In this document: one piece after another, positions 27,209-64,000 of the stretch | Layout of the letters: each line of letters starts with the position of its first letter | Position numbering within the stretch: position 1 is the first letter of the stretch | Assembly (NCBI GenBank): GCA_016188245.1 | Contig: JACPIE010000028.1 | Span: 5,704 to 69,703 of the forward strand | Direction: 5' to 3' | Source of the DNA: Candidatus Woesearchaeota archaeon | Lineage (GTDB): Archaea; Nanobdellota; Nanobdellia; Woesearchaeales; GW2011-AR4 | DNA length: 64,000 nt | The notes under the pieces: model-generated | The model's database searches: none | What the model was told of the DNA's origin: nothing | Seen by the model: only the letters and a program-made list of their open reading frames with translations | Position numbers and translations under genes: made by a program

Positions 27209-27318
27209 CTAATCACCTCTATTTTGCATTAATCCCATTTTATTCGCTTATTTAAATAGTTTTCGCAAATTGAGAATTTGCGAGAACTCCCGAAAACTTT
27301 GTTTTCGAAAAATTTGGA

Positions 27319-28665
27319 TTATGACGTTGCATCTTTCTTGGGTTTTTCCGCCTTTTTGCCTTTTCCTTTGTTTTGGTTCATCATCCAAGCTTTTTTTGTC
27401 GTGTATTGGGCCGGATTCCGTATCCTCTGGCAGAAACTGTCGGGCTTGCATACCCCAATCCCAACCATATACGCTTCATTGCTGCAGTTTGGAGGCAAAA
27501 CTTTCTTGTGGCTTTGCTTGTGGTACCTCAGCTGCCCCATAAGGTAAACTTCCCTTAACGGCTCCCTGTTTTTTGAATTCCATTCATTGAGCTTTTTTTC
27601 TATGGCATCATAGCCCCATCCTATTGAAGTGAAATAATTAAGCAGGACAAGCAATGCCCTTTTTCTTCCGTCCTCCAATCCGTTGAGTATGAGCTTCACA
27701 CACGGCGGGAACAGCTCTTCAGGCAACGCATTTTCAGGTGCTGCAAACTCTTTTTTTCCGCCAAGCTTGACCTCTTCATGCCTGATTCCAAAATCCAAGG
27801 CTTCCATCAGCAGCCCTTTTGCCTCATCGCTTTTGGCATTCTCCCTTGCAAGAAACACATGCCTGCTTATCCTGACATTTTTTGGAGCCGCAAGCTCCTT
27901 CCTGAAAAGCAAGACTTTTTCAGGATTTAATGGCGTTGAAGCCAATCCAGACTTTTCATGCAGGGAGTACGGCATCCTGTACAAGTGCCTTGAGGAAATA
28001 AGCAAAGTGTCTATGTTCAGGAACGGCTCGGCATTCAGTGCCCTGTTTTTGTTAATGTAGTAAGTTATTTCATTTGCGTTTTTGCCAGTCTTTTTCATTA
28101 TGGCATTAAAGTCATTATTTTCAAAGCCCATTATCTTTTCCCCAAGCGGCTTTTTTATCATCTCCTTTATGTACAGCGCAATCTGCCTTGGGGCATCGGG
28201 AAACAGCTTTTTTGTGCCTTCATTCCTTATCTTCTCAGGGAAAGCCTCAAAAGGCACCCCTATATGGAACCCCTTGTTGCCTGAGAACTTGCATGAAATC
28301 GATTTTATGCCGTGAAACTTCAAAGCCTTTACAATCAAATCAGCGGCTATTTTCGAATATTCAAAAAATCCGCAGTCTATGTCAAGAACCAAGTCCCACC
28401 CGGACCTTAAATTGTCAAGCTCATGCTTCTTCATCGAAGTGTCAAGCTGCAAAGGGTTTCTCCAAAGCTCTTCAGATGCGTGAAAAGAAGTTGCGCCCTG
28501 CTTGGCAAGCTCAAGAATATCGCCCGAATGCCTCAGCACGTCAGGCCTTTTGCCGAAATTATCGCTGAATTTGACTGCAATTTCCCTGTCTTTGGAATTT
28601 GCAATTATCCCTTCCCGGATATCTTCCCTTTTGTAATAGCTTAAAGAAACATTTAAAGGAATCAT
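27319..28665 (-). CDS. DNA primase, fused small (PriS) and large-subunit C-terminal (PriL-like) domains
   Basis: N-terminal catalytic motifs DLVLDIDC and SGNKGFHIGVPF. The C-terminal ELFPPCVKLILNGLEDGRKRALLVLLNYFTSIGW and Cys-rich end resemble the PriL CTD. Lys-rich tail. Confidence 0.7.
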   Translation of the reverse strand: MIPLNVSLSYYKREDIREGIIANSKDREIAVKFSDNFGKRPDVLRHSGDILELAKQGATSFHASEELWRNPLQLDTSMKKHELDNLRSGWDLVLDIDCGFFEYSKIAADLIVKALKFHGIKSISCKFSGNKGFHIGVPFEAFPEKIRNEGTKKLFPDAPRQIALYIKEMIKKPLGEKIMGFENNDFNAIMKKTGKNANEITYYINKNRALNAEPFLNIDTLLISSRHLYRMPYSLHEKSGLASTPLNPEKVLLFRKELAAPKNVRISRHVFLARENAKSDEAKGLLMEALDFGIRHEEVKLGGKKEFAAPENALPEELFPPCVKLILNGLEDGRKRALLVLLNYFTSIGWGYDAIEKKLNEWNSKNREPLREVYLMGQLRYHKQSHKKVLPPNCSNEAYMVGIGVCKPDSFCQRIRNPAQYTTKKAWMMNQNKGKGKKAEKPKKDATS

Positions 28666-31993: not shown

Positions 31994-32068
31994 TACTAGA
32001 GTACTTACGTTAGGCGAACTTTCCCAAATTAAGAAAATTTATAAATCAAAAAATCTTCTTTTTTGTTA

Positions 32069-32749
32069 ATGACAAATACTAAATGGAAAGCTTTTGAGGA
32101 ACTTGTCAAAAAAATTTATGATATATTCCTATCAGAATACGATAAAAATGTTAAGCACGATATTAAAATTAAAGGAAAATCTGGGCTGGAACATCAAATT
32201 GATGTTTTTGTTGAAATTTTTATGCCAATTCTAACAATTAAAGACATAATAGACTGTAAACATTGGAATAGCAGAGTTAAAAAATCTGACGTAAAAGAAA
32301 TTTATACTACTAGGGATGAGGTCAATGCTAATAGGGCTACAATAATTTCTCGTAAGGGATTTCAAAGTGGTGCAATTCAGTTTGCTAAATTTAACGGGAT
32401 TAATTTATATAAAATTCTGAAACCAGAAGAATTGGGATTGCACACTGCTGTTTTTAAGGTAGAAGGCATAAAAGAAGAAGTCATTAAACTTAATGTTCAA
32501 TTAGAAGCTGAAAATCCCGAACAATTAAATCAATTATTTTCAAAATTTCATAAGAAGAAAAATTATAATGAGGTCACGATTTATAACCAAAAAGGAGAAG
32601 CGATAGCAAATGTTTTCGATTTGATGGATGATGCTTTTAGTCATTTGCGAAAAATTCCAGAACCAGGTTTAGAATCTACGACAAGGTTTTTAAATAGTTA
32701 CATGATAATAGATGGCAAGAAAAGAAAGGTTAACTTTATTGAAATATGA
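32069..32749 (+). CDS. Restriction endonuclease-like protein (Mrr_cat type PD-(D/E)xK N-terminal domain + unknown C-terminal domain)
   Basis: WKAFEELVKKIY, GKSGLEHQIDVFVE, IIDCKHW and ATIISRKGFQSGAIQFAKFNGINLY follow the Mrr catalytic-domain pattern. Track start is TTG; ATG is at 32069. Confidence 0.6.
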   Translation: MTNTKWKAFEELVKKIYDIFLSEYDKNVKHDIKIKGKSGLEHQIDVFVEIFMPILTIKDIIDCKHWNSRVKKSDVKEIYTTRDEVNANRATIISRKGFQSGAIQFAKFNGINLYKILKPEELGLHTAVFKVEGIKEEVIKLNVQLEAENPEQLNQLFSKFHKKKNYNEVTIYNQKGEAIANVFDLMDDAFSHLRKIPEPGLESTTRFLNSYMIIDGKKRKVNFIEI

Positions 32750-32879
32750 ATTCAAAAGAGACCAATAAAAACAGAGAGATCTCAAGACATTAAAAATATA
32801 AAATTGCTCATAAACGATGTAGTTAATAACAAAATGTTTCTTGTTGAAAAACCAATTGGATTTGATTTGTTGGAAAAGG

Positions 32880-33647
32880 ATGGAATTTAAATGGGTAGTG
32901 AATAAAGAGGATATAGAAAGATTAAATAATTTCGTAGATAAATTTAAAGGAAATAATTTTGTGAAAGGTAGGGTTAAGAGGAACTTATCCGACAGTATAC
33001 CTCAATTTACTGAATCTGAATTTTGGAAATGGATGATTGGCTGCCTCTTGACAACACAACAGAGATCTGGTCCAAACAGCAGAATTTCTAAATTCTTAAT
33101 AATCACCCCTTTCCCCTTAAGCTATGATTCTTGTAAAAAGACTAAAAATCTTAAGAATTATTCATATGAGGTGCTTACCAAATCAAGAGGAATAAGAAGA
33201 ACAAACAAAATCAGTGAAGAAATTAAATTTAATTTTGATTGGTTGGTGAATGATGGTTGGGAAAAGATTATCAACATTTCAGAAAAGCTTATGGAAGCGA
33301 GGAAACAAAAGCCTTCAACAGAAAACATTAAGGTAGAACGAGAAGCATGCTTACTTGTTCAAGATTTGAAGGGGATAGGACCTAAGCAATCAAGGAATTT
33401 ATGGCAGGCTATGGGTTTAACAAGATATGAGATACCAATTGATAGCAGAATTATAAAATGGTTAAATAAAAATGAATTTCCATTTACTTTATCACCATCT
33501 GGATTATCGGATGAGAACTATTATCAGATGTTAATGGGGGGTATACAGGAATGGTGTGAAAGAGCGGATATTTTTCCTTGCATTTTTGATGCAGCAATAT
33601 TCTCAAGCTATGATGAAGAATGGCCAGAAGATTATGAACTTTGGTGA
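32880..33647 (+). CDS. HhH-GPD superfamily DNA glycosylase-like protein
   Basis: LKGIGPKQSRNLWQAMGLTRYEIPIDSRIIKWL is a helix-hairpin-helix plus a downstream Asp, as in EndoIII/OGG/AGOG enzymes. Track start is TTG; ATG is at 32880. Confidence 0.5.
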   Translation: MEFKWVVNKEDIERLNNFVDKFKGNNFVKGRVKRNLSDSIPQFTESEFWKWMIGCLLTTQQRSGPNSRISKFLIITPFPLSYDSCKKTKNLKNYSYEVLTKSRGIRRTNKISEEIKFNFDWLVNDGWEKIINISEKLMEARKQKPSTENIKVEREACLLVQDLKGIGPKQSRNLWQAMGLTRYEIPIDSRIIKWLNKNEFPFTLSPSGLSDENYYQMLMGGIQEWCERADIFPCIFDAAIFSSYDEEWPEDYELW

Positions 33648-33674
33648 ATATTAAAATTAATTTTTTCAGAAAAA

Positions 33675-34247
33675 ATGAAAAATAAAAAACTCACAATTGA
33701 AGAAAATATAAAAAAATTAAATTATTTTACTAGTATAGCTAAGGAAGCCGAGAAATCTGAGGATTTTCCAACAAAATTGGGTGCCTTGACTATTTATGCC
33801 GGAATGGTGGATTTCTCTGCTATACAAGCAGCAAAAGTTCTCGAACAAGTAATACTAAAATCACAGATAAAATTAAACAAAAGACCCTCATTTAAACCAA
33901 AATCTGATGAATATTTTTATAATTTTCAAGTCCCTAGCAGAAGAATAGGTAGAGTAATAAGCTCTCATTTACCTTTCAGACCCTTAGCTGGAACTAATGA
34001 AGAAAAAGCTCAGGAAATTACTTCTAAAGCTAAAAAATTTTTAGAATCACTGAATAACTTTCTTAATTATCGGAACACTCTGGTTCACCATTTAGGAAAT
34101 TCTAAGTTTAGTAAAGAATATTTATACGAACTACTAAATAAAGCAATATCAAAGTACAAAGAATATGTTATGGCTCATGAAGAATTTATGGACATAATAG
34201 CACCCTACACTCTTACTAAAGAACAAAGAGAAGAACTTTACAAATAG
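33675..34247 (+). CDS. Hypothetical all-helical protein with HEPN-like RNxxxH motif
   Basis: 190 aa; LNYRNTLVHHLGN fits the R-N-x3-H motif of HEPN RNases. No other recognisable feature. Confidence 0.35.
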   Translation: MKNKKLTIEENIKKLNYFTSIAKEAEKSEDFPTKLGALTIYAGMVDFSAIQAAKVLEQVILKSQIKLNKRPSFKPKSDEYFYNFQVPSRRIGRVISSHLPFRPLAGTNEEKAQEITSKAKKFLESLNNFLNYRNTLVHHLGNSKFSKEYLYELLNKAISKYKEYVMAHEEFMDIIAPYTLTKEQREELYK

Positions 34248-34332
34248 AAAATTAGAAAAGATGATATTACTATTATCAATTCAGCTATTATGTTCTCAAA
34301 AATGCCATCTAAAGTTATCATTTTTAGTTAAA

Positions 34333-34995
34333 TCAACCTATATAATCTGGCTTTTCTTTCTTGTTTTTTCTCTCTTGATATTTTCTAATGAAATATCTTA
34401 TTAACCAACGTGAGCCTGCGTATATTGTACATATTAAAGTCAATAGCGTTGTCCATGTCACAAAAAAGGTCAATTTATTTGTGAAATCTTTAGAGCTTTC
34501 AATAATGTAATCCAAGAGTGAAGGATCAGGAATTCGGATAAAATTATAGTAAGTTCCATTAAATCCAACATAAAGCCATGTAGGAATTGTCCGGATTTGT
34601 ATTGTGGTAGTCCCATTAACTAATTTTAGATTTTTTTCATGTAGTTCTTTTCCATTGCCAAAATCATAATACAAATCAGCAGAACAATCTTGGCATGGAA
34701 CACAAACAGGTTCAAAACTACTACATAAGTTTAACGTGATATGTAGCAAATCTCTTTCGCCAAAATTTTCATTATATGCTGCATCAATGTTATATGCTGG
34801 TACTATAGACATCATGCCGGGAATTGGAATCGCTACTCTATCTCCACTCCACCATAAAAATTGCTGATAAAAGAGAAGAGAAACCATCACGAATGAAAGA
34901 AATGCCGTCAGTAAAATTCTTTTTTCTGTAGGAATACCTCTAACAAACTCGTGCATTTTCTCAGCATTGGTTTTATATTTCTTCTTTTTCTTCAT
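34333..34995 (-). CDS. Hypothetical bitopic membrane protein with Cys-rich extracytoplasmic domain
   Basis: 220 aa; TM near the N-terminus and TM near the C-terminus; CSSFEPVCVPCQDCS cluster. Last gene of a 3-gene minus-strand cassette. Confidence 0.35.
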   Translation of the reverse strand: MKKKKKYKTNAEKMHEFVRGIPTEKRILLTAFLSFVMVSLLFYQQFLWWSGDRVAIPIPGMMSIVPAYNIDAAYNENFGERDLLHITLNLCSSFEPVCVPCQDCSADLYYDFGNGKELHEKNLKLVNGTTTIQIRTIPTWLYVGFNGTYYNFIRIPDPSLLDYIIESSKDFTNKLTFFVTWTTLLTLICTIYAGSRWLIRYFIRKYQERKNKKEKPDYIG

Positions 34996-35296
34996 TTATG
35001 TATTCTAGAGCTCTTTTTTTATTCCATTTATGTACTCCTTTTTCTTTAAATTCCACTAATAATGTTGTATTACTAAAATATCGTCCACAAGTATATGCTA
35101 ATAAAACTAAAACAATTATAAAAAAAGGGTATATGACCCAAGTTTCTCCACTTAAGATGGCTCTTAAAAAATCAAAAAAAGTTATGATAAGTACAACTAA
35201 AAAACTAACCATAAAAGCTTGATAAACACTCAACTGTCTCTTTAATTCTGATAATTTTGATTTTTTTACAATATTTAGCATTTTTTCTGCATTCAT
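34973..35296 (-). CDS. Hypothetical small membrane protein (2 TM)
   Basis: 107 aa; overlaps the downstream gene by 23 nt and lies 9 nt after the upstream gene. Confidence 0.3.
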   Translation of the reverse strand: MNAEKMLNIVKKSKLSELKRQLSVYQAFMVSFLVVLIITFFDFLRAILSGETWVIYPFFIIVLVLLAYTCGRYFSNTTLLVEFKEKGVHKWNKKRALEYINEEKEEI

Positions 35297-35305
35297 TTGT
35301 CAAAA

Positions 35306-35986
35306 TCATTTAGTTTCTCTTTTTATAAAATTAACAAATTTATAACCGAATTCATTTTGCCTAAACTCGAGATTTGGTTTATGGAAAAAATGATCATATG
35401 GCATAGAACCAGTATTTGCTTCTCTTTTCAATTGTTCAAATGATTCCCCAACCTTTTCGAAAGCCCGACCAATCGAATCAATATCCCTTTGTACTAAGCC
35501 GTGTCCAGACAGCACATTTATCAAGGATTTTTCTCGTGGATTTAAAAAAGATTCATTAATTATAGTATGATCTTCCTCGTAGATACTTAATAGATAGACA
35601 AGTTCTTCCTCAGATAGTCTATCTAAAATATTAAGAAACGAGAGTTTTTCGTCAAAAGAAATTTTCTTTTTATAAGAATTTATTGCCAAATTTAAATATC
35701 TCTTTCGTTTTTCTTCTCTATTCTCAAAAGCTACCTTTTGAACAAGTTCTCGGATAAATTGTATATTTTCCGCAGATTTCCTAGCATCATCAATCATAAA
35801 CAAAACATCGACTTCATTGATAAATTCTTCCCACCACTCTTTATTTCTTTTACTAAGATATTCAAAGCCCTGAACTAGCAAGGCAAAAGATCCTGTTGTT
35901 GCCCCAACAATCCCCCCAAATAGAATGTCTATTATTGGTGCTACAGTCTTAAAGACTTCAATTCCAAACTCTTTTTTCTCATTCAT
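35306..35986 (-). CDS. Hypothetical protein (N-terminal Gly-rich hydrophobic segment, helical body)
   Basis: 226 aa with ATG start; first gene of the minus-strand cassette. No family recognised. Confidence 0.4.
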   Translation of the reverse strand: MNEKKEFGIEVFKTVAPIIDILFGGIVGATTGSFALLVQGFEYLSKRNKEWWEEFINEVDVLFMIDDARKSAENIQFIRELVQKVAFENREEKRKRYLNLAINSYKKKISFDEKLSFLNILDRLSEEELVYLLSIYEEDHTIINESFLNPREKSLINVLSGHGLVQRDIDSIGRAFEKVGESFEQLKREANTGSMPYDHFFHKPNLEFRQNEFGYKFVNFIKRETK

Positions 35987-36158
35987 TTTTATTTAGTTGG
36001 TTTCTAATCCTTTAAAAAGGCTTCCATACATTACACTGAAAATGTTTGACATAACGTTAACAGAGTATGCAAATATGAGAAACTTACCTATCCAAAAATC
36101 AGTAACCTTTAAATTCCCTTATTCATTCTATTTTCTATAGTAAAAGGGATTGATAATC

Positions 36159-36320
36159 ATGCTTGATTGGGATAAAAAGCAATGGAAATTATTCTGGCTA
36201 GGTAGTACTGGATTTTTCATTATAACTGGTGTTTTTGGGATAATGAGTCAAGTTTGGTATACGATTGCAATCTCGGTAATTATGACATCTATCTCAATTA
36301 TACAATATAAAAAAATTTAA
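36159..36320 (+). CDS. Small membrane protein (53 aa, 2 TM), below the ORF-track cutoff
   Basis: ATG 36159, TAA 36318-36320; translates to MLDWDKKQWKLFWLGSTGFFIITGVFGIMSQVWYTIAISVIMTSISIIQYKKI. Ends 2 nt before the next ATG. Confidence 0.25.
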   Translation: MLDWDKKQWKLFWLGSTGFFIITGVFGIMSQVWYTIAISVIMTSISIIQYKKI

Positions 36321-36322
36321 TC

Positions 36323-37429
36323 ATGAGTAAAGAAGAGCTAGATAGGAAAATTTCTGAATTCAGGGATTTTTTAGAGAAAAATAATTTTCCTGTTGTGAAT
36401 TTAATATTTGAAAATTTTCTTAGTGGGAAAATAAAAAACAAATTCTTAGATTTAGTTAAATTATCAAAAAAAGTAGATACCTCAAAACAGGAAAACGAAA
36501 TAAAATTTGATTTAATAAAACTACTCGATAGAATCGTTAGATTAGATCCAACAAGAATTAAGAAATATTATCTTTGGGATATTGCTGTTGAAGAAAAAAC
36601 AGATTTTGTATTTGAGAAATTCCCAGAGGTAAAAGAATTATTGGACGAAGATGGGCTTATTCAAATACCTTACAACTCTGATTTAAATAAGAATGGATTC
36701 AGATACAAGGATAGTTATCTAATTTTTGAGAATGCTTACAGCAGAAATTTTCATCTAACACAATGGTTAATAGAAAATTGGAAAAATAATTTTGTACTAA
36801 AACTTCCGATTAACAAAAACTGTTTAGGAGTTTCTGAAACAAGGAGACAAGTAGAATTACTTTCTCATTGGCAAGGTCCTAAAACAATTAATCAAATTAA
36901 AGAATCTTTAGCGGGAAAGGAATTTGTCGTGAAAGGCCCAAGTTTTTTTGATGCACCTTTGATGGATAAAACAGAGTTCTTATTTAATTCACGAGATAAT
37001 AAGTGGCATTTGCAAATTGAGGAGTTGTTACCTCTAGACGGCATTGAACTTGGAACAATAATTAATTATCAAGACAAAGAACATAAATTTTATACTAGGT
37101 ATCTACATGCAATTACTAACAAAAATCTGTCAGAATGTTTTCATATGGATGGTGGAATAAGAGTTTACAAAACTTATGAAAATTTTGAAAGGAGGAATAA
37201 ATCTGAATTAAAAGATTCTAGCATAACAAGTTACTCAGATAGATATAAATTTTTTAGAGTAGATTCAGAAAGTGGAATTTCATCCTTTCAAGAGATTATT
37301 GGTTTGTTTTTCATAGCAAACCCTTATGTTTTAGAGTTTTTTGATGGAGAAAGTAATTTCACCAAAGATTTAGAAAAAAACAGAACAGGCATTTTAGAAA
37401 TAGATTTTAAGTATAAAAAATTCAATTAA
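36323..37429 (+). CDS. Hypothetical soluble protein, 368 aa
   Basis: Long ATG-initiated ORF in an A+T-rich context where stop codons are frequent. No family recognised. Confidence 0.45.
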   Translation: MSKEELDRKISEFRDFLEKNNFPVVNLIFENFLSGKIKNKFLDLVKLSKKVDTSKQENEIKFDLIKLLDRIVRLDPTRIKKYYLWDIAVEEKTDFVFEKFPEVKELLDEDGLIQIPYNSDLNKNGFRYKDSYLIFENAYSRNFHLTQWLIENWKNNFVLKLPINKNCLGVSETRRQVELLSHWQGPKTINQIKESLAGKEFVVKGPSFFDAPLMDKTEFLFNSRDNKWHLQIEELLPLDGIELGTIINYQDKEHKFYTRYLHAITNKNLSECFHMDGGIRVYKTYENFERRNKSELKDSSITSYSDRYKFFRVDSESGISSFQEIIGLFFIANPYVLEFFDGESNFTKDLEKNRTGILEIDFKYKKFN

Positions 37430-37483
37430 TTAACAAGTTAAATAAAGTAATCCTTAAATACATATTGATATTTGTAAAAATTT

Positions 37484-38407
37484 ATGAATAATATAATAAT
37501 AAATGCTTCGAATGGAATCAACGCTTCTATATCTATTTTAAACAACAATCCACCTATAAATTATTCTATAATAGAAAGTATAGCAAATAATGCTGTTTCA
37601 ACTTTAACAAGTGCTAATACGGCTTTTATTGATCCTTACTGGTTTTATAGTGCCGCTGCACAATCTGCCGCAGCAATTGTTGGTCTTATGGGTGCTTTCT
37701 TAACCACTAAAATCATAAGTATACATAGTCAGAAAAAACAATTAAAACAGAATATTTCGACTTACAAAAATCAGATAGAGTTTATAGAAAAAGAAATAAA
37801 ACCATTTCAAGAATGGATAAAAAAAATTGATGAGGATGAAGAAAGAAAAAATGTTATAAAATTCTTGGATGAAATAAAAGAAACAATAAATCTAGATAAT
37901 CCCCCAGAGTTTGAATCAATTCTGAAAGAAGCAAGAGAATCTGAAGATTTTAAAGACATCAGTGAAGAAATTCTAAAAGAAGAGTACAATGAAGAATTTT
38001 TTAATTCAGTAAGAAACTATCGCCGTACGCCACCTTTTGCTAGGGGACTCTCTAACTTATTCACTTCAAATTTAGACGCAACTAGAGATAAATGGAATAG
38101 GTATCGAGAATATTCTGATTATATAGATAAAAAATTAGTAGAAGTTGAATCACTCAAAAAATTAATTTCCATAAAAGAAGATGAAATAAAAAGTCTAGTA
38201 ACACTAAAGGAGTTAAGAGATAACATTTTTTCACTAATAATATTTTCTATATTGGGTGTTGTTGTCCCATTAACTTTATTAATGTTGAATTATGAGACAA
38301 TGCTTAAATGGCGATTAATCGTTCTTGCTCTTTTTATTTTTGGATTAAGTCTTGTTGTTGTTACTATTAGCAATGAAATAAGAAAAATATTTTCAAGCAA
38401 ATATTGA
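37484..38407 (+). CDS. Hypothetical membrane protein: TM - long coiled coil - two C-terminal TM segments
   Basis: 307 aa; hydrophobic AAAQSAAAIVGLMGAFLTTKII, an E/K-rich heptad-like middle, and a C-terminal LIIFSILGVVVPLTLLML / LIVLALFIFGLSLVVV. Confidence 0.4.
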   Translation: MNNIIINASNGINASISILNNNPPINYSIIESIANNAVSTLTSANTAFIDPYWFYSAAAQSAAAIVGLMGAFLTTKIISIHSQKKQLKQNISTYKNQIEFIEKEIKPFQEWIKKIDEDEERKNVIKFLDEIKETINLDNPPEFESILKEARESEDFKDISEEILKEEYNEEFFNSVRNYRRTPPFARGLSNLFTSNLDATRDKWNRYREYSDYIDKKLVEVESLKKLISIKEDEIKSLVTLKELRDNIFSLIIFSILGVVVPLTLLMLNYETMLKWRLIVLALFIFGLSLVVVTISNEIRKIFSSKY

Positions 38408-45788: not shown

Positions 45789-45806
45789 TATAAAATTATC
45801 GAAAAA
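45789..45806 (-). promoter_or_regulatory. TATA-box-like promoter element (copy 1 of an 18-nt direct repeat)
   Basis: TATAAAATTATCGAAAAA reads TTTTTCGATAATTTTATA on the minus strand, with TTTTATA about 25 nt upstream of the ATG at 45764. An identical 18-mer lies at 45852-45869. Confidence 0.35.
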
Positions 45807-45893
45807 TTTCGTTTTTCGGAATTTTATATTCGAAAATTTTAATTTTCTTTATATAAAATTATCGAAAAACTTGGATTTGATTTTAAAGTATTC

Positions 45894-53605: not shown

Positions 53606-56600
53606 ATGACAGAGGAAACAGTGCAAAAATCAGGCACAAGAATAGTGCCAAGAGTCATCCAGGAAGAGATGAAGCAGAGCTACCTTGATTATTCAATGTC
53701 TGTTATTGTAGGGAGGGCACTGCCTGACGTGAGGGACGGATTAAAGCCCGTCCACAGAAGAGTGCTTTTTACGATGTGGGATATTGGATTGACTCATGAC
53801 AAGCAATTCAAAAAATCCGCCAATGTTGTCGGAAACTGCATGGCGCGTTTTCATCCGCATGGCGATTCGGCAATTTATGATACGCTTGTCCGCTTAGCCC
53901 AGGATTTTTCTATGAGGTATCCTTTGATTGACGGGCAGGGAAATTTTGGTTGTTTTACAGCTGATACAAAAGTCAAGCTGACTGACGGAAGAGATATAAC
54001 TTTTACAGAATTAATAGAAGAGCATAAACAGGGAAAAAGGAATTTTACATTTACCATCGACGAAAAAGGATTTGTTAAAATAGCAGAGATAAAAAACCCA
54101 AGACTAACTAAAAAGGATCAGAAATTAATGAAAGTTGTCCTTGATAATGGGGAGGAAATTAAATGCACTTTGAATCATAAATTTATGTTGAGGAACGGCG
54201 CATATAAAGAAGCTCAGGATCTAAAGCACGGTGATTCCTTAATGCCGCTTAACTTAAGATTTTCTACCAAAGAAGATGCTATAAAACCAGAGCTTGTTGG
54301 TTATCAAATGATTCATCAACCAAATGTAGATGAATGGACTGGTGTCCATGTTCTTGCTGATGAATGGAATTTAGAGCATGGAGTATATGCAAGAAGTTCA
54401 GGAAAAATAAGGCATCACATGGATTTTAACAAATTGAACAACAGCCCAGACAATTTAGTCAGAATGCAATGGAAAGACCATTGGAAATTACATGCAGAAC
54501 ACGCTTCACATCTTCATAATAATCCAGAATATCGTAAAAAGATATCTGAAGGAAGGAAAAAATATTGGTCTGCAAAAGAGAACAGGGAAAAAGCAGCCAA
54601 GATACTTTCTGACGGAAATAAGCAAAACTGGAAGGATGCAAATTACAGGAATTTAATGATAAAAATGTTAAGTGAAATTAATATTGAACACTACAAAAAA
54701 CATCCTGAACTAAGAAAAGTCATTAGTAACAGATTAAAAAATTTATGGAAAAATGAAGAATATCAAAGGTTAATGAGTACATTTAAGTCGAAAGAAACGA
54801 AGGAGAGATGGAAAAATAAAGACCCGTCTTTAAGAAAATTTACATCTGAAGAATCCAAAAAGATATGGTCTAATCCTAGGCATAGAGAATTTGTTTCTAG
54901 CCTAATGAAAGAAATTTGGCAGAATGAGGGATATAGAATTAGGATGGGCAAAGAGTCAAAGGAAAGATGGGAAGATGCCACATATCGCTCGAAATTTAAT
55001 CAAAATCATTTTCAAAATCATTTTAGTCAAATGGCAAAAAAATTGTGGACAGATCCAAATATACATAAACTACATAGTGAAAAAACATCACTTCAATGGA
55101 AAAATCCTGAATTCCGTGAAAAAATTATTAGCCAAGTAAAAAAAAGCAACGAACAACGACTGCAAAAAGATCCAGATTATATGAAAAAATTAGCAAAGAA
55201 AGCCAGTATGTCATTAAGAGAAAGATGGCAACATACACACTATAAAAAAAAAATCATAAAAAATAAGATTTTGGGTTATGTCAATTCCCTCAATAAAAAA
55301 TATGCAGAAATAACACCTGAAATTTACGAAAAAGAAAGGTACAATAACAGTATTCCAAGAATCAGCACTGCCCTAAAATATTTTGATAATTTCTTTGATA
55401 TGGTTAAACAAGCAGAGACCTATAACCATAAGGTTTTGTATGTTGAAATTCTTACAAAAAACGAAGATGTTTATGATTTGACTGTAGCAGAAACCCATAA
55501 TTTTGCCCTTAGTGCTGGAGTTTTTGTACATAATTCTGTTGACGGGGATCCGGCAGCCGCAATGCGCTACACAGAATGCCGCCTGACCAAGCTGTCAGAA
55601 GAGATGCTTGAAGATATCGATAAAAAAACAGTCAGGTTCATTTCAAACTTTGACAGCAGCACGACTGAGCCGATTGTGCTGCCTTCCAAGCTTCCCAATC
55701 TCCTTATCAACGGCAGCTCGGGAATTGCAGTCGGCATGGCGACAAACATGCCACCAAACAATGTCGGCGAAATTATCGATGCAGTTACTATGCAAATATC
55801 CAATCCTGAAATAGGAATTAACGAAATATTAAACATAGTCCGGGGGCCTGATTTTCCCACAGGCGCATTAATATGCGGAAAAAACGGCATCAGGGAAGCC
55901 TACTCAACCGGAAGAGGCAAGATTCTCGTAAGGGCAAAAACCACAATTGAACAGGACAAAAATAAATCAACAATCATCGTGAACGAAATACCATTCATGG
56001 TGAATAAGTCAGAGCTGCTTGAAGAGATAGCTGACATGGTAAGGGACAAGAAAGTAATAGGGATTTCTGATTTGAGGGATGAAAGCGACAGGCATGGAAT
56101 AAGGATTGTGATTGAGCTGAAAAAAGATGCTGATGCCAATGTGGTCCTTAACCAGCTGTTTGAGCATTCAAGGCTGCAGACAACTTTCGGAATCATAATG
56201 CTTGCCCTTGTGAGCAATGAGCCAAAAATCCTCAATATAAAACAGCTGATACATTTTTACATAGAGCACAGGAAGGATGTTGTCAGAAAAAGAACATTGT
56301 TTGACCTAAACAAGGCCCAAACCAGGGTGCATGTTTTGGAAGGGCTGATAATTGCGCTTAGTAACATCAGTAGTGTAATCAAGCTGATTAGGGAAAGCAA
56401 ATCAGTGGAAACAGCGAAAGATGCCCTGGCATCAAGCTTCAACCTTACAAATGAGCAGGCAATTGCAATCCTCGAAATGAGGCTGCAAAGGCTGACTTCC
56501 CTGGAGCAGGAAAAAATAAAGCAGGAGCATTCTGGATTACTGAAGCTCATCGAGGAGCTGGAATCTATATTGTCGAACCCGCAGAAAATATTAGGCATAA

Positions 56601-57643
56601 TCAAAAAAGAGCTTGGAGAGCTGAAGGAAAAGTACAACGATGCAAGAAGAACGCAGGTGATAGAGGCTGAAAATGAGGAGCTTGAGACAGAAGACCTGAT
56701 AAAAGACGAGGAGATGGCAATAACCATAACCAACTCCGGATATATAAAAAGGCTGCCACTGCAGACTTACAAGCTCCAGCACAGGGGAGGCAAAGGCGTC
56801 ATAGCTGCAGCAGCCAAGGAACAAGACATAGTCAAGGACATATTTGTTGCAAGCACACATTCTTACATTCTGGTTTTCACAGACAAAGGAAGGGTGTACT
56901 GGCTGAAAGTGTATAATGTTCCGGAGGCAAGCAGGCAGGCAAGAGGCAAGGCCATTGTGAATATGCTTGAAATGCAGGGCAATGAAAAAGTCACAGCTTT
57001 TGTTCCTGTAAGGAATTTTGACAGCGGAAAATACCTTATCATGTCAACAAAAAAAGGCACTGTAAAGAAAACAGAAATAATGGCTTACAGCAACCCAAGA
57101 AGGCACGGCATAGTTGCAATCACGCTTGAGCAGGGGGATGAGCTGATAAATGTTGAGCTTACTGACGGCAACCAGCAAATAATCCTGGCAACCAAAAACG
57201 GCCTGGCTGTAAGATTTGAGGAAAAAGATGTTAGGGCAACGGGCAGGAGCGCGCAAGGCGTAAGGGGAATATCTTTGAAGGACAATGATGGAGTCATAGG
57301 GATGGTTGTGGCATCTGATGAAACCACCCTTATGAGCGTTACTGAAAACGGGTACGGAAAAAGAACGCCAATTTCCGAGTACAGGCTGATAAATCGAGGA
57401 GGATCAGGAGTTATAAACATCCAATGCAGCGAAAGGAATGGCAAGGTTGTCTCAATCTGCCCTGTGGCAGAAAATGACGACATAATCTTCATAAGCAAGA
57501 ACGGCATTGTCATAAGGGTTTCAGCAGCCGACATTTCAGTCATTGGCAGGAACACCCAAGGCGTCAAAATAATGAAGCTTGATGAAAGCGACAAGGTTGT
57601 GAGCGCTGTAAAGGTGGCTAAAGAGGAAAATAACCACGAGTAA
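53606..57643 (+). CDS. gyrA: DNA gyrase subunit A, interrupted by an intein
   Basis: Extein motifs SMSVIVGRALPDVRDGLKPVHRRVL, HPHGD, PLIDGQGNFG | SVDGDPAAAMRYTE (catalytic Tyr), and a C-terminal beta-pinwheel with repeated G-rich blades. The extein sum is 817 aa. Confidence 0.9.
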   Translation: MTEETVQKSGTRIVPRVIQEEMKQSYLDYSMSVIVGRALPDVRDGLKPVHRRVLFTMWDIGLTHDKQFKKSANVVGNCMARFHPHGDSAIYDTLVRLAQDFSMRYPLIDGQGNFGCFTADTKVKLTDGRDITFTELIEEHKQGKRNFTFTIDEKGFVKIAEIKNPRLTKKDQKLMKVVLDNGEEIKCTLNHKFMLRNGAYKEAQDLKHGDSLMPLNLRFSTKEDAIKPELVGYQMIHQPNVDEWTGVHVLADEWNLEHGVYARSSGKIRHHMDFNKLNNSPDNLVRMQWKDHWKLHAEHASHLHNNPEYRKKISEGRKKYWSAKENREKAAKILSDGNKQNWKDANYRNLMIKMLSEINIEHYKKHPELRKVISNRLKNLWKNEEYQRLMSTFKSKETKERWKNKDPSLRKFTSEESKKIWSNPRHREFVSSLMKEIWQNEGYRIRMGKESKERWEDATYRSKFNQNHFQNHFSQMAKKLWTDPNIHKLHSEKTSLQWKNPEFREKIISQVKKSNEQRLQKDPDYMKKLAKKASMSLRERWQHTHYKKKIIKNKILGYVNSLNKKYAEITPEIYEKERYNNSIPRISTALKYFDNFFDMVKQAETYNHKVLYVEILTKNEDVYDLTVAETHNFALSAGVFVHNSVDGDPAAAMRYTECRLTKLSEEMLEDIDKKTVRFISNFDSSTTEPIVLPSKLPNLLINGSSGIAVGMATNMPPNNVGEIIDAVTMQISNPEIGINEILNIVRGPDFPTGALICGKNGIREAYSTGRGKILVRAKTTIEQDKNKSTIIVNEIPFMVNKSELLEEIADMVRDKKVIGISDLRDESDRHGIRIVIELKKDADANVVLNQLFEHSRLQTTFGIIMLALVSNEPKILNIKQLIHFYIEHRKDVVRKRTLFDLNKAQTRVHVLEGLIIALSNISSVIKLIRESKSVETAKDALASSFNLTNEQAIAILEMRLQRLTSLEQEKIKQEHSGLLKLIEELESILSNPQKILGIIKKELGELKEKYNDARRTQVIEAENEELETEDLIKDEEMAITITNSGYIKRLPLQTYKLQHRGGKGVIAAAAKEQDIVKDIFVASTHSYILVFTDKGRVYWLKVYNVPEASRQARGKAIVNMLEMQGNEKVTAFVPVRNFDSGKYLIMSTKKGTVKKTEIMAYSNPRRHGIVAITLEQGDELINVELTDGNQQIILATKNGLAVRFEEKDVRATGRSAQGVRGISLKDNDGVIGMVVASDETTLMSVTENGYGKRTPISEYRLINRGGSGVINIQCSERNGKVVSICPVAENDDIIFISKNGIVIRVSAADISVIGRNTQGVKIMKLDESDKVVSAVKVAKEENNHE
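53951..55534 (+). mobile_element. Intein (528 aa) with HNH-type endonuclease motif and NUMOD3-like repeat array
   Basis: Begins CFTADTKVKLTDG (block A, Cys1) and ends VYDLTVAETHNFALSAGVFVHN, followed by Ser+1. The interior has HHMDFNKLNNSPDNL..H..H and about 10 repeats of the type W-x-[ND]-P-E-[YF]-R / S-x-E-[ST]-K-x-x-W. Confidence 0.85.
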
Positions 57644-60533: not shown

Positions 60534-61080
60534 CGCCGCAATACTTATAATTGGAATCATCATATTTGCCATTTCATACAGCATTGACAATCAGGCAAGC
60601 GCATTTTTTAAAGAAGCAAAATTCCCGCTTTTTGATGCCGTGTTCAGCACTATAACTAATTTCGGAGTTGTCCTGATCGTGATGCTTGCAATCCCGTCAA
60701 TCATGATTTACAAGAAAAAAAGAAAACTGGCCTACCTGCTGCTGGCGGCTTTCTTCATCTCTTTTGCGCTGGCATTTGTTTTGAAATTGGCATTCCTGAG
60801 GCAGCGGCCCATAGACGCGTTTACATACCCATTTACCGGCATCATAAATTATTCTTTTCCAAGCATGCATGCAATGGTTGTTTTCGCATTGCTGCCGATT
60901 CTGGCCAAATATCTGCAAAAACAAAGAACTTTTTGGCTTTCATTCGCTTTTTTGGCTGTTTTTAGCAGAATTTACCTCGGTTTTCATTTTTTAAGCGATG
61001 TTGTGTTTGGGGCATTATCGGGATACTTCATCGGCACATGTTTGCTCAGATATTCAGAAAATAAAAAATGGCTGAAATAA
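60517..61080 (+). CDS. PAP2 family phosphatase (polyprenyl-diphosphate / phosphatidate phosphatase type)
   Basis: KLAFLRQRP, PSMHA and SRIYLGFHFLSDV form the three PAP2 motifs. Start set to ATG 60517. Confidence 0.75.
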   Translation: MKKPNDAAILIIGIIIFAISYSIDNQASAFFKEAKFPLFDAVFSTITNFGVVLIVMLAIPSIMIYKKKRKLAYLLLAAFFISFALAFVLKLAFLRQRPIDAFTYPFTGIINYSFPSMHAMVVFALLPILAKYLQKQRTFWLSFAFLAVFSRIYLGFHFLSDVVFGALSGYFIGTCLLRYSENKKWLK

Positions 61081-61661
61081 ACAAGTTTGAATTTGGCAGG
61101 CAGCTTTTTCATATATTTCTTGGAGTATTTATCGTGATTTTATTGATGTATAACCTCATTGGCAAAAACACGATATTGGCGGCTGTAATAATCGGATTGG
61201 CGCTCTCTTACCTGAGCAAAAAAGCCAAAATTCCGGCAATTTACCAATTGCTTCAAAAATTTGAGAGAAAAAAAGAAATCAAAAAATTTCCAGGAAAGGG
61301 ATTAATATTTTACCTAATTGGGGCTTATATCTCCCTATCCTTCTTTCCAAAAGACATTGCAATGGCTTCAATAATGGTGCTCGCCCTTGGGGATTCATTT
61401 TCCCACCTGTTTGGAATTCATTACGGCAAAACAAAGCACCCATTGTCAAAAACAAAATTTCTGGAAGGAACAATTGCCGGATTTGCAGCAGGATTCCTCG
61501 GCGCTTTGGTGTTCTTGCCGTGGCACGAGGCATTTTTTGCTTCGCTTGCAGCAATGCTGGCCGAAGCAATGGATATTCAGCTAGGCACCCATCAGGCTGA
61601 TGACAACCTGATTGTGCCTTTTGTGGCAGGGGCTGCGGTTTGGATTGTCAGGATGGCTTAA
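61068..61661 (+). CDS. Polyprenol/dolichol kinase-like membrane protein (paralog of 44700-45308)
   Basis: ALGDSFSHLFGIHYGKTKHPLSKTKFLEGTIAGF is the same motif architecture as 44700-45308. Confidence 0.5.
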   Translation: MAEINKFEFGRQLFHIFLGVFIVILLMYNLIGKNTILAAVIIGLALSYLSKKAKIPAIYQLLQKFERKKEIKKFPGKGLIFYLIGAYISLSFFPKDIAMASIMVLALGDSFSHLFGIHYGKTKHPLSKTKFLEGTIAGFAAGFLGALVFLPWHEAFFASLAAMLAEAMDIQLGTHQADDNLIVPFVAGAAVWIVRMA

Positions 61662-61809
61662 ACGAAAGAATGATATACTCGTTCTCTCAAGAGCATAGTA
61701 CATGGTTAAAGATGCGTGTGAAGGAAGAATTTGCTTTTATAAAATAGGATACTCTCTCAGATTTTTAAATATCGAAATTCCACTTATGTCATGAAAATCA
61801 AAGATTCAG

Positions 61810-61855
61810 CGAAAATCATAGATTTTCGAGGTGATCGAAAACTTATAGTTTTCGA
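61810..61855. promoter_or_regulatory. Two adjacent 8-bp-arm palindromes upstream of the AAA+ activator gene (candidate operator or RNA hairpins)
   Basis: CGAAAATC-ATA-GATTTTCG (61810-61828) and TCGAAAAC-TTATA-GTTTTCGA (61835-61855), about 140-185 nt upstream of the ATG at 61996. Confidence 0.3.
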
Positions 61856-61995
61856 CATTCGAGTGTGCTCGGAAATCGCTTTGTGATTCGCCGGCATATG
61901 GCTGGCGGTTTTTGACACTTGATAAACAATGCAATGACTTAAAAGTGGTGAAAGAACAGAAAGATTTAAAAATTTGAAGTGAAAATAACAATAAA

Positions 61996-63117
61996 ATGGC
62001 AACTGTGACGGTTGATGCACCAACAATAGAATTATGCCTTCCCCATTATGTTAGCAGGGAAGGGTTGGTAATCGTTTCTCGTTCGATGCAAGCAGTTTAT
62101 GCGGATATACAAAAAGCTGCAAGTGTCATATCGAATTTGTTAATCCTTGGAGAGAGCGGAACAGGCAAAGACACGGTAGCGTATGCCGTCCATAAAAATA
62201 GCAGTAGGCAGGGCAAAAAGCTTGTCCGCGTTGATATGGCAGCTTTACCAAGAGAATTGCTGGAAGCTGAGTTGTTTGGATATTGCAAAGGTGCATTTAC
62301 TCACGCAATTAAGGACAGGCAAGGCAGGTTTCTGTATGCTCACGGAAGCACATTATTCCTTAACGAGATAGTGGAAATAGACACTCAACTGCAGGCAAAG
62401 CTATTATCCGCCATCGAATACAAGGAAGTGACCAGGCTTGGCGAAGATGAAGCAAAGACTGTTGATGCAAGAATTATCGCAACAACTAATAGGGATATAC
62501 ACCAAGAGATGAGGCAAGGAAATTTTAGACAAGATCTTTATTATAGGTTAGCCGTCTTGACAATTCATCTTCCGCCGCTTAGAGAAAGAAGGGAAGACAT
62601 ACCCTACTTGATAGCTTTTTTAATGCAAAAACATCAACGAATTCTCGATATAGCAACAACACCATTTAAACAGCAGGAGTATGGCGTATTTCAAAATGAA
62701 TATGATTGGCCGGGAAATGTCAGGGAATTAAGCAATGTGGTTGAGCATATCATAGCTACAGGAAAGGATAAAATTGGCGTATTGGATAAAATGAGAAAAG
62801 AAGCACTTACTATATACGGGGCTAGGAACCCGGGCTTAGGAAGCGCATCAATGGGTGTTCAAAAATTGGCAGAAACTGAAAAAAGCCAAATTTTAAGCGC
62901 ATTAAGGGAATATAAGGGAAATATCACCTTAATAGCAGACAAACTAGGAGTCACGCGACAAACATTGAAATTTAAGTTAAATCAATATATTACTAGAGAC
63001 GATATAACAAGAGCTTTGGAACAATCAAATGGAGATAGAAATGCAGCTGCAGGTTTGCTTGGGATGAAACAGCAAACATTTCATGGAATGTTAATTCATC
63101 ATAAGATATCTTTATAA
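61996..63117 (+). CDS. NtrC-family sigma54-interaction-domain AAA+ transcriptional activator (no receiver/sensor domain) with C-terminal Fis-type HTH
   Basis: GESGTGKD, ELFGYCKGAFTHA, GSTLFLNEI, RQDLYYRLAVLTIHLPPLRERREDIPYL, WPGNVRELSNVVEH, and the HTH GNITLIADKLGVTRQTLKFKL. Confidence 0.8.
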   Translation: MATVTVDAPTIELCLPHYVSREGLVIVSRSMQAVYADIQKAASVISNLLILGESGTGKDTVAYAVHKNSSRQGKKLVRVDMAALPRELLEAELFGYCKGAFTHAIKDRQGRFLYAHGSTLFLNEIVEIDTQLQAKLLSAIEYKEVTRLGEDEAKTVDARIIATTNRDIHQEMRQGNFRQDLYYRLAVLTIHLPPLRERREDIPYLIAFLMQKHQRILDIATTPFKQQEYGVFQNEYDWPGNVRELSNVVEHIIATGKDKIGVLDKMRKEALTIYGARNPGLGSASMGVQKLAETEKSQILSALREYKGNITLIADKLGVTRQTLKFKLNQYITRDDITRALEQSNGDRNAAAGLLGMKQQTFHGMLIHHKISL

Positions 63118-63155
63118 ACATTAATCCTTTTTCTCTCTGGTTTAAATTATTCAAA

Positions 63156-64000
63156 ATGCTAAGCGAACAACTGACGGAAATATTCCTGAAAAACAAAGAG
63201 CCGTTTGCAGACATACTTGGGCAGGAAAATGCAAAGCAGGGCATCAAGTCAGCCTTGCTTGCCGACAGGCACATAGTCATTGTAGGCTCACCGGGAATCG
63301 GAAAAACTACATTGGCAAAGAACATAGCAAAACTGCTGCCTGATATGGAAGCCATAGAAGGCTGCCATTACCATTGTGCTCCGGAAAATCCGGTATGCCC
63401 TGCATGCAGGCAAAAAAAGCACCAAAAAACAGCCAGATTAAGCGGGGAAAAGCGATTTGTCAGGATACAGGGAAGCCCAGACTTAACAGTTGAAGACCTG
63501 CTTGGAGATATAGACCCGATAAAAGCCCTGAAATTCGGGCCCTTGAGCCTGGAAGCGTTCACTCCCGGAAAAATATTCAGGGCCAACAACGGAATTTTAT
63601 TTTTTGACGAGCTGAACAGATGCCCTGAAAAGCTGCAGAATGCCTTATTGCAGGTCCTGGAAGAAAGAAAAGCAACTATCGGCTCTTATGATGTTGACTT
63701 TGATGTTAATTTCATATTCATAGCTACGATGAACCCGGAAGACACTTCTACAGAAAAGCTGAGCGATGTGCTGCTTGACAGGTTTGACATTATTTACATG
63801 GGATATCCTGAAAACAACGAAACAGAAAAGCAGATTGTTTTGATGAAAGGAAAAAAATTGGCAAATGTTAACGATGAGCTGCTCAATCTGATTGTTTATT
63901 TCATCAGGCTGCTCCGCCAAGACGAAAAACTCGAAAAAAAGCCGAGCGTAAGGGCTTCAATCGGGCTGTATGAAAGGGCGCAAAGCAACGCACTCCTGAA
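63156..64000 (+). CDS. Mg-chelatase ChlI/BchI-like AAA+ ATPase (3' end outside the window); not in the ORF track
   Basis: My own translation from ATG 63156: FADILGQENAKQGIKSALLADRHIVIVGSPGIGKTTLAKNIAKLLP, Zn-ribbon-like insert GCHYHCAPENPVCPAC, GILFFDELNRCPEKLQNALLQVLEER, ATMNPED and LLDRFD. Open to the window end. Confidence 0.75.
   Translation, partial: MLSEQLTEIFLKNKEPFADILGQENAKQGIKSALLADRHIVIVGSPGIGKTTLAKNIAKLLPDMEAIEGCHYHCAPENPVCPACRQKKHQKTARLSGEKRFVRIQGSPDLTVEDLLGDIDPIKALKFGPLSLEAFTPGKIFRANNGILFFDELNRCPEKLQNALLQVLEERKATIGSYDVDFDVNFIFIATMNPEDTSTEKLSDVLLDRFDIIYMGYPENNETEKQIVLMKGKKLANVNDELLNLIVYFIRLLRQDEKLEKKPSVRASIGLYERAQSNALL

Follow-up and report, generated by a model that had tools for sequence, protein, structure and literature searches.

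Enhancer-binding proteins (EBPs) are the textbook partners of bacterial sigma54; EBP-like annotations exist in databases for some methanogens, and the occurrence of such proteins in archaea is, as such, probably not unprecedented. Here, we analysed an EBP homologue of 373 amino acids (aa) encoded at positions 61996–63117 (plus strand, ATG start) of a 64,000-nucleotide stretch of contig JACPIE010000028.1 (assembly GCA_016188245.1, Candidatus Woesearchaeota archaeon); this whole 64-kb stretch is referred to below as the window. We show that the protein belongs to a small EBP family that was gained from bacteria by an ancestor of a subgroup of Woesearchaeota, that the gene was inserted between a gene for a 197-aa membrane protein and a native operon encoding a MoxR/ChlI-like AAA+ ATPase and a VWA-domain protein, and that it is kept under purifying selection in some lineages.

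Archaea are considered to lack sigma factors, and a survey of 380 archaeal proteomes found no sigma54-specific EBPs (PMC12316311). The closest precedents for an EBP-type core working in other ways are the atypical EBPs, which act as ordinary DNA-bound activators or repressors; one of them, VpsR, is sigma70-dependent and has Asn-Asp at Walker B, the same Asp-to-Asn change as in the protein described here (PMC6158489). Our literature searches on archaeal or DPANN EBPs found nothing specific. The kind of protein is known; its novelty, judged by the literature searched, lies in the setting, namely, a vertically maintained, selected EBP family in DPANN archaea that has an archaeal promoter of its own.

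A family of EBP homologues at one Woesearchaeal locus

The protein encoded in the window has an AAA+ core with its lid, followed by two HTH_8 domains, and lacks a sensor domain. Pfam places the Sigma54_activat AAA+ domain at residues 27–191 (62074–62568, plus strand, as are all parts of the gene given below; E 6.6e-59), followed by the AAA+ lid (AAA_lid_14, residues 196–262, 62581–62781), which includes the sensor II motif WPGNVREL. HTH_8 is matched in two stretches (E 8.9e-13), and these correspond to a first Fis-type helix-turn-helix (HTH) at residues 291–331 (62866–62988) and a second at residues 334–368 (62995–63099), each of which forms a three-helix bundle in the AlphaFold (AF2) model. 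No domains besides these were found with Pfam, and only 26 residues precede the AAA+ domain. The second, tandem HTH is shared with a single family member, P0374. The RERREDI and WPGNVREL motifs can be read directly in the sequence, a phmmer search of the PDB gave ZraR as the top match (E 3.8e-64), and the AF2 model (mean predicted local distance difference test score, pLDDT, 92.6) was superimposed by Foldseek on the AAA+ domains of NtrC1, FleQ, FlrC and ZraR with root-mean-square deviations (rmsd) of 1.1–2 Å.

The first-pass annotation, made from the sequence alone, had described a bacterial EBP core lacking any N-terminal receiver or sensor domain. The core is borne out by Pfam, the PDB matches, the motifs read in the sequence and the fold, and the missing sensor by the start of the AAA+ domain at about residue 27. 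The further statement that every hallmark of EBPs is present holds for Walker A, RERREDI, WPGNVREL and the HTH and goes too far at Walker B, which reads LFLNEI; likewise, the Fis-type HTH is there, as two copies in tandem rather than one. All scores against the NCBIfam equivalogs of named EBPs fell far below the curated cut-offs (the best was NifA, 273 against 529), which makes this a generic EBP core outside any named subfamily.

Among the genes of the window are those for PCNA, the small primase subunit PriS, a Hef helicase-nuclease and a class I CCA-adding enzyme, and the relatives of its Hef and ChlI-like proteins at 80–91% identity are named Candidatus Woesearchaeota or Nanoarchaeota by their sources; the host is therefore a member of the Woesearchaeota, a DPANN archaeon, and the EBP core does stand, as initially proposed, on a genuinely archaeal contig. 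All the nearest EBP homologues outside the family are bacterial, at 45% identity or less, which could point to an assembly chimera or to bacterial contamination of the archaeal bin, and a chimeric join near 61.7 kb had been named at the outset as one of two findings that would refute the claim. No such join was found. Three Logan assemblies, made independently from three samples, match the window with 100% identity across 61192–63800; one of their contigs extends from within the upstream gene, over the 334-nt spacer and the EBP gene, as far as the ChlI-like gene, and the identical gene order recurs at seven other loci from other samples and metagenome-assembled genomes (MAGs), drawn from NCBI MAGs, ENA and Logan. 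Identical independent assemblies and conserved synteny together rule out a chimeric assembly. The EBP gene also has a host-like composition, which had been judged only by eye before (GC content 39.9% against about 40% for the window, 34% at third codon positions, and a codon-usage distance that is mid-range for the window and no outlier), and its promoter is of the archaeal type. We therefore give practically no credence to chimerism or contamination as the source of this gene.

A word-indexed search of 5.8 billion proteins returned one close relative, P0002 (~61% identity), all other matches being bacterial and at most 46% identical; an exhaustive phmmer search of 1.84 billion cluster representatives agreed with this result and added several short sensor-less relatives at 40–46%. 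Homologues were found in the same slot in eight Woesearchaeal lineages, that is, the lineage of the window and those represented by L004 (protein P0002; Logan; a short contig on which just the EBP-to-ChlI side is visible), L089/L090 (P0384; GCA_964412735.1), L091 (P0383; GCA_964528545.1), L092 (P0374; Logan), L093 (P0430; Logan), L094 (P0385; Hainich groundwater) and L176/L177 (P0443; GCA_016185875.1). The shared gene order is NTP-transferase, VTT, PAP2, 197-aa membrane protein, EBP, ChlI-like ATPase and VWA. The EBPs of the family are 35–62% identical among themselves; compared with the proteins of the window, identity is 42–62% for the EBP, 58–74% for the 197-aa protein and 73–91% for the ChlI-like protein.

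In a tree of the AAA+ core (240 alignment columns, 259 bacterial homologues, neighbour-joining only), seven archaeal members form a clade among the bacterial EBPs (bootstrap 0.815), and the sister group of this clade is without support. The eighth member, P0443, is tied to the family by its position in the slot and by a shared promoter block, not by the clade. A contig scan for the donor lineage gave bacterial EBPs from many phyla at 35–45% identity and no clear donor. Between the window EBP and that of L004, the ratio of nonsynonymous to synonymous substitution rates (dN/dS) is 0.12, with dS near saturation. A recent bacterial acquisition, which the first-pass annotation had entertained, does not agree with this ratio, with a family diversified over eight lineages or with a conserved archaeal-type promoter belonging to the gene itself; the best reading is that the acquisition is old and that the gene has been domesticated.

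Loci lacking the EBP delimit the insertion. The ChlI-like/VWA operon is present at 80–91% identity in many Woesearchaeota, mostly without an EBP, and the slot upstream of it holds varied contents: a 377-nt spacer between the flanking genes in L085, a 72-aa open reading frame (ORF) in L086 (2175–2393), the end of an unrelated gene upstream of ChlI in L087 (1–270), and three unrelated ORFs in L088 (2102–5914; 133, 873 and 259 aa), which gave no Pfam or PADLOC match. This slot, bounded by the 197-aa and ChlI-like genes, looks like an insertion hot spot. In a metagenome scan with a ChlI alignment, an EBP was found upstream of ChlI at none of 80 loci; where the 197-aa gene adjoins the ChlI-like gene in the metagenome loci, the usual gap is 52–74 nt, which we take as the ancestral state of the slot. 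EBP-bearing and EBP-lacking loci are interleaved in neighbour-joining trees of both flanking genes, and the EBP is therefore a patchy accessory gene that has been lost repeatedly and/or has recombined within the clade.

The gene that follows the EBP after 38 nt had been called ChlI-like, and this holds: it starts at 63156 and is Mg_chelatase/AAA_3/AAA_5-like. The native TATA box of its operon (CTTTATAAAC, 63110–63119, plus strand) overlaps the EBP stop codon and is conserved with or without an EBP upstream. We considered and ruled out that the EBP and the ChlI-like gene were transferred together as a functional pair, given that the operon is native, usually EBP-free and equipped with its own TATA box; because the ChlI-VWA operon is native and has its own promoter, the adjacency is explained by the site of insertion.

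ATP site, promoter block and candidate modes of action

The motifs of seven archaeal members were tabulated against the 259 bacterial homologues, P0443 standing outside this table. In the window EBP, Walker A reads GESGTGKD (62149–62172), with Asp after the Lys where 93% of bacterial EBPs have Glu. The non-canonical Walker B, LFLNEI (62353–62370), has Asn123 aligned with the Asp of ZraR, NifA and NtrC1, a position occupied by Asp in 257 of the 259 bacterial homologues and by Asn in none of them. Asp80 (62233–62235) aligns with Asn64 of PspF, the 'glutamate switch', and Ser is found at the position of PspF R122. The remaining machinery is in place, namely, K58 of Walker A, the Arg fingers R178 and R184, T164/N165 of sensor I and R243 of sensor II. 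Across the family, the Walker A Lys, both Arg fingers, the sensor I Asn and the sensor II Arg are kept in all seven tabulated members, and the sensor I Thr is replaced by Ser in one. Substitutions are concentrated at the nucleotide site and the L1 loop: the Walker B Asp is Asn in three of the seven (the subgroup of the window, L004 and L091), five have Asp, Asn or Thr instead of the Glu that follows the Walker A Lys, the Glu-switch Asn is Asp in four, and the residue at the PspF R122 position is Ser or Gly in three. The window EBP and L004 both combine D59, D80, N123 and S138, and L091 has only D59 and N123. This co-occurrence of four ATP-site substitutions (residues 59, 80, 123 and 138; 62149–62409) suggests compensatory co-evolution rather than decay.

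The consequences can be gauged from PspF, in which Vmax drops from 39.5 per min to 0.23 in D107A, 1.5 in N64Q and 1.26 in R122A, so that ATPase activity is down 26- to 170-fold, whereas E43D is tolerated (PMC3419264). With D59, D80, N123 and S138 set against these mutant kinetics, the proteins of the window/L004 subgroup would be expected to bind ATP and to hydrolyse it slowly.

The L1 loop, GAFTGA in canonical EBPs, reads GAFTHA in the window EBP (62290–62307), so that its Phe and Thr are retained. The family consensus is G-[AS]-[FY]-[TS]-G-A; L004 and P0443 have the exact GAFTGA, other members have GSFSGA or GSFSSG, and, among the seven, the Phe is changed to Tyr in three and the Thr to Ser in two. 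GAFTHA cannot serve as proof that contact with sigma54 was lost, because bacterial EBPs vary at the fifth position of the loop: dozens have Asp, Glu, Asn or Ser there (GAFTDA, GAFTEA, GAFTNA, GAFTSA), and one bacterial EBP, P0092, likewise has GAFTHA. The persistence of a GAFTGA-like loop in a host presumed to be without sigma54 is notable.

Upstream of all eight family members lies a promoter block, at 61922–61972 (plus strand) in the window, which extends over about 51 nt (consensus AAAAATAGTGAAATGACTAAAAAGTAGTGAAnGAAnAGAAAGATTTAAATA) and contains two direct repeats of the (T)AGTGAA type, separated by about 19 nt, with a B recognition element (BRE) and a TATA box after them. The TATA-like sequence of the window (TTTAAAAA, 61965–61972, plus strand) is that of an archaeal-type promoter and is centred about 27 nt before the ATG; because this is the spacing expected for archaeal leaderless mRNAs, the EBP mRNA is probably leaderless. 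Pairwise identity averages 73% in the block, compared to 41% at third codon positions of the EBP, 48% immediately after the TATA box and 42% between the EBP proteins. The composite motif was detected at six of the eight EBP promoters, occurs once in the window, and has no match in 535 kb of EBP-lacking relatives. With this pattern of conservation, the block is a constrained cis-element that travels with the EBP gene, and autoregulation by the EBP would be the simplest reading of it.

These data bear on the possibility that the EBP is a neutral or decaying passenger of horizontal transfer, functionless in the archaeon. Its patchiness among close relatives, with no occurrence at the 80 sampled loci and interleaving in the flank-gene trees, would fit a passenger, as would its faster evolution than both flanks and the departure of Walker B and L1 from the canonical motifs. 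Against it stand the low dN/dS, ORFs that are intact in eight lineages, invariant catalytic residues, the confident AF2 model and a promoter block far more conserved than synonymous sites, and we consider a functionless passenger very improbable.

Still less probable, to the point of being hardly credible, is a conventional sigma54-dependent activator that would be served by a sigma54 encoded elsewhere in the genome or would act on that of a bacterial partner. The nearly complete EBP core, the exact GAFTGA of L004 and P0443 and the existence of a bacterial EBP with GAFTHA are what such an activator would predict. However, archaea are regarded as being without sigma factors (PMC12316311), and the EBP gene is itself under a TATA-type promoter. 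Sigma54-type sites (TGGCAC-N5-TTGCW, up to two mismatches) show no excess in the 64-kb window, with 41 observed against 46 expected, and no RpoN box was found in the six-frame translation of the window. Also counting against such an activator, no export signal was noticed in the N-terminal sequence on inspection by eye.

We favour, with about even confidence, the reading that this is a domesticated bacterial-type EBP family acting without sigma54 as a DNA-bound, ATP-binding oligomeric regulator. Because the host is an archaeon, the EBP most likely works without sigma54, as VpsR, TyrR and NtrX do. The HTH_8 domains, two in tandem in the window EBP, would bind DNA, and the AAA+ core would be chiefly an oligomerisation switch that binds ATP, and not a fast motor, a role suggested by the Asp-to-Asn change at Walker B, the Asn-to-Asp change at the Glu switch, the Ser at the PspF R122 position and the Asp after the Walker A Lys. 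The EBP oligomer could modulate archaeal promoters, served by TBP, TFB and RNA polymerase (RNAP), by occlusion or recruitment. Its most probable first target would be its own promoter, via the (T)AGTGAA direct repeats upstream of the TATA box, and effects on the adjoining ChlI-VWA operon are possible. We infer this mechanism as a whole from the comparisons made here.

Several observations weigh against a DNA-bound regulator of this kind. The canonical Asp-Glu Walker B is kept in four of the seven tabulated members, and the eighth, P0443, reads LYLDEI there, so that weak ATPase activity would be expected only in the window/L004/L091 subgroup. The L1 loop, which is lost in the classical atypical EBPs, is largely kept, and this hints that it still engages some substrate. 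The DNA-binding end differs between members, which have two HTHs, one, or a degenerate one; such variability next to a conserved promoter block is awkward for simple autoregulation, and a host factor, rather than the EBP, might bind the candidate block.

The main rival to the regulator reading is a mechanical AAA+ remodeller, in which the retained L1 loops of a hexamer would engage and unfold or thread a substrate other than sigma54; such a substrate might be an archaeal initiation factor, a repressor or the MoxR-like ATPase/VWA complex encoded alongside. A mechanism of this enhancer or chaperone type would be new to Archaea. Retention of the L1 consensus, the Arg fingers, sensors I and II and the full fold among members only about 40% identical speaks for a remodeller, as do the canonical Walker B of four of the seven tabulated members and the presence of the ChlI-like/VWA operon next to the EBP in all eight lineages. 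However, the window EBP is changed at four ATP-site positions, at sites whose mutation costs PspF 26- to 170-fold in activity, no partner was identified, and the adjacency is accounted for by the insertion site, the ChlI-VWA operon being native, mostly EBP-free and under its own promoter. On balance, we hold the remodeller to be unlikely. An ATP-driven, enhancer-type remodeller with its L1 loops re-targeted to an archaeal initiation component or another host protein we regard as decidedly unlikely.

Whatever its mode of action, the family presents a complete EBP core under selection at one locus in small-genome DPANN lineages, and so a natural experiment on what the EBP AAA+ core does without sigma54, brought about by a bacterial-to-DPANN transfer that was domesticated, not lost. 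The window EBP is tractable, with 373 aa, a confident model and a defined candidate operator, and is a candidate for asking if ATP-dependent activator machines can interface with transcription of the TBP/TFB type. If the re-targeted remodeller were to prove true, it would mean a first AAA+ 'activator-motor' input to transcription of the archaeal type, and that in genome-reduced DPANN cells.

Neighbouring genes and other features of the window

The left border of the slot is formed by the 197-aa membrane-protein gene (61068–61661, plus strand), which is conserved among relatives. The protein has no Pfam match; by eye, its motif DSFSHLFGIHYGKTK...EGTIAGF resembles dolichol kinase/CDP-diglyceride synthase. 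The company of NTP-transferase, VTT/DedA, PAP2 and the 197-aa protein suggests a lipid or glycan carrier cluster. On the right, the native MoxR/ChlI-like ATPase gene (63156–64000, plus strand) is cut by the window end; in relatives, the protein is about 346 aa long and is followed by an overlapping VWA-domain gene (e.g., L085, 6001–8218). Its Walker A motif is followed by an insertion rich in Cys (CHYHCAPENPVCPAC) that may be a zinc ribbon. As in the window, where the EBP stop codon overlaps the TATA box of this operon, the EBP stop in L004 and L092 falls next to the box, here TTTTATAAAC. Positions 1–19 of L004 are a remnant of a Nextera transposase adapter (AGATGTGTATAAGAGACAG) and are non-genomic.

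The distal part of the spacer upstream of the EBP contains two perfect palindromes within 61810–61855, CGAAAATC-ATA-GATTTTCG and TCGAAAACT-TAT-AGTTTTCGA, located at 61810–61828 and 61835–61855, each a candidate operator or RNA hairpin. The pattern CGAAAA-N7-TTTTCG has three exact matches in the window and none in 100 shuffles, and palindromes of the CGAAAA...TTTTCG type are also seen at 27290–27320, 45799–45868 and 25671. Nine of the 17 copies of the TCGAAAA half-site are intergenic, against 1.5 expected; these half-sites are absent from the orthologous spacers of L175, a locus presumed to lack the EBP, with the slot itself outside the visible stretch. None of the other seven members has CGAAAA-N7-TTTTCG palindromes upstream, which rules out these palindromes as a family-wide enhancer; they may serve as operators for a lineage-specific factor or as hairpin/terminator elements.

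Closer to the EBP gene, a GC-rich hairpin followed by T5 (61888–61913, plus strand) resembles a terminator. Folded as RNA, the stretch 61785–61920 forms five tandem hairpins, the last of which is this GC hairpin with U5, with a minimum free energy of -44 kcal/mol (z = -4.0; none of 200 shuffles folded as well). This five-hairpin stretch is confined to the spacer of the window lineage, and no Rfam match was found in the region upstream of the EBP. A TATA-like sequence (TTTTATAAAA) lies at 61737–61746, upstream of the folded stretch. Going by the predicted fold, either a small structured RNA or a 3' untranslated region may lie at 61737–61913.

Elsewhere in the window, a low-GC island at 32000–38400 (28–33% GC against about 41%, with strongly deviant codon usage) encodes an Mrr_cat nuclease and six ORFs without a Pfam match. 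In L175, the interval between Hef and an M48 peptidase has thioredoxin/DsbD genes in place of this island, which is therefore a second variable region. GyrA, at 53606–57643, bears an intein (Intein_splicing inside DNA_topoisoIV), as it does in L085 and L089.

Comparison with known systems

The best PADLOC match of the window EBP is RtcR_PspF2 (E 4e-90), by way of the AAA+ and HTH parts. Unlike CARF-AAA-HTH proteins of the RtcR type, the window EBP matches profile positions 167–478 only, lacks the CARF domain and lies in neither a CRISPR nor an rtc setting. Because the match is limited to the AAA+ and HTH parts, we rule out the defence or CARF role that it might suggest.

In architecture, the window EBP is like the sensor-less, trans-regulated PspF and HrpR/HrpS, which likewise consist of AAA+ plus HTH only and are about 330–370 aa long. 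Unlike PspF, it scores 225 bits against TIGR02974, for which the cut-off is 443.55, and the position of Trp56, which contacts PspA in PspF, is Gln in an alignment made by eye. No psp or hrp genes lie near the window EBP, which is flanked by a membrane-protein gene and by the ChlI-like/VWA operon.

With the canonical EBPs (NtrC1, ZraR, FleQ, FlrC and PspF), the window EBP shares 40–46% identity and the fold (rmsd 1.1–2 Å over about 230 residues), along with Walker A, the Arg fingers, sensors I and II, RERREDI, WPGNVREL, a GAFTGA-type L1 loop and a C-terminal Fis-type HTH. It differs from them in its Asn-Glu Walker B, the Asp at the Glu switch, GAFTHA and the tandem HTHs, and in its setting, that is, an archaeal host, a TATA-type promoter and a 64-kb neighbourhood that shows neither an RpoN box nor an excess of -24/-12 sites.

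The closest counterparts in behaviour would be the atypical EBPs (VpsR, TyrR, NtrX, HupR, PhhR and HsfA), in which an EBP-type core works without sigma54. A non-consensus Walker B is common to them and the window EBP, which, by this and by its variant GAFTGA, has the sequence marks of an atypical EBP. In the atypical EBPs, GAFTGA is largely lost and the polymerase is bacterial sigma70 RNAP, whereas the window EBP mostly keeps the L1 loop and has no receiver or sensor, and the polymerase on which it acts would be archaeal.

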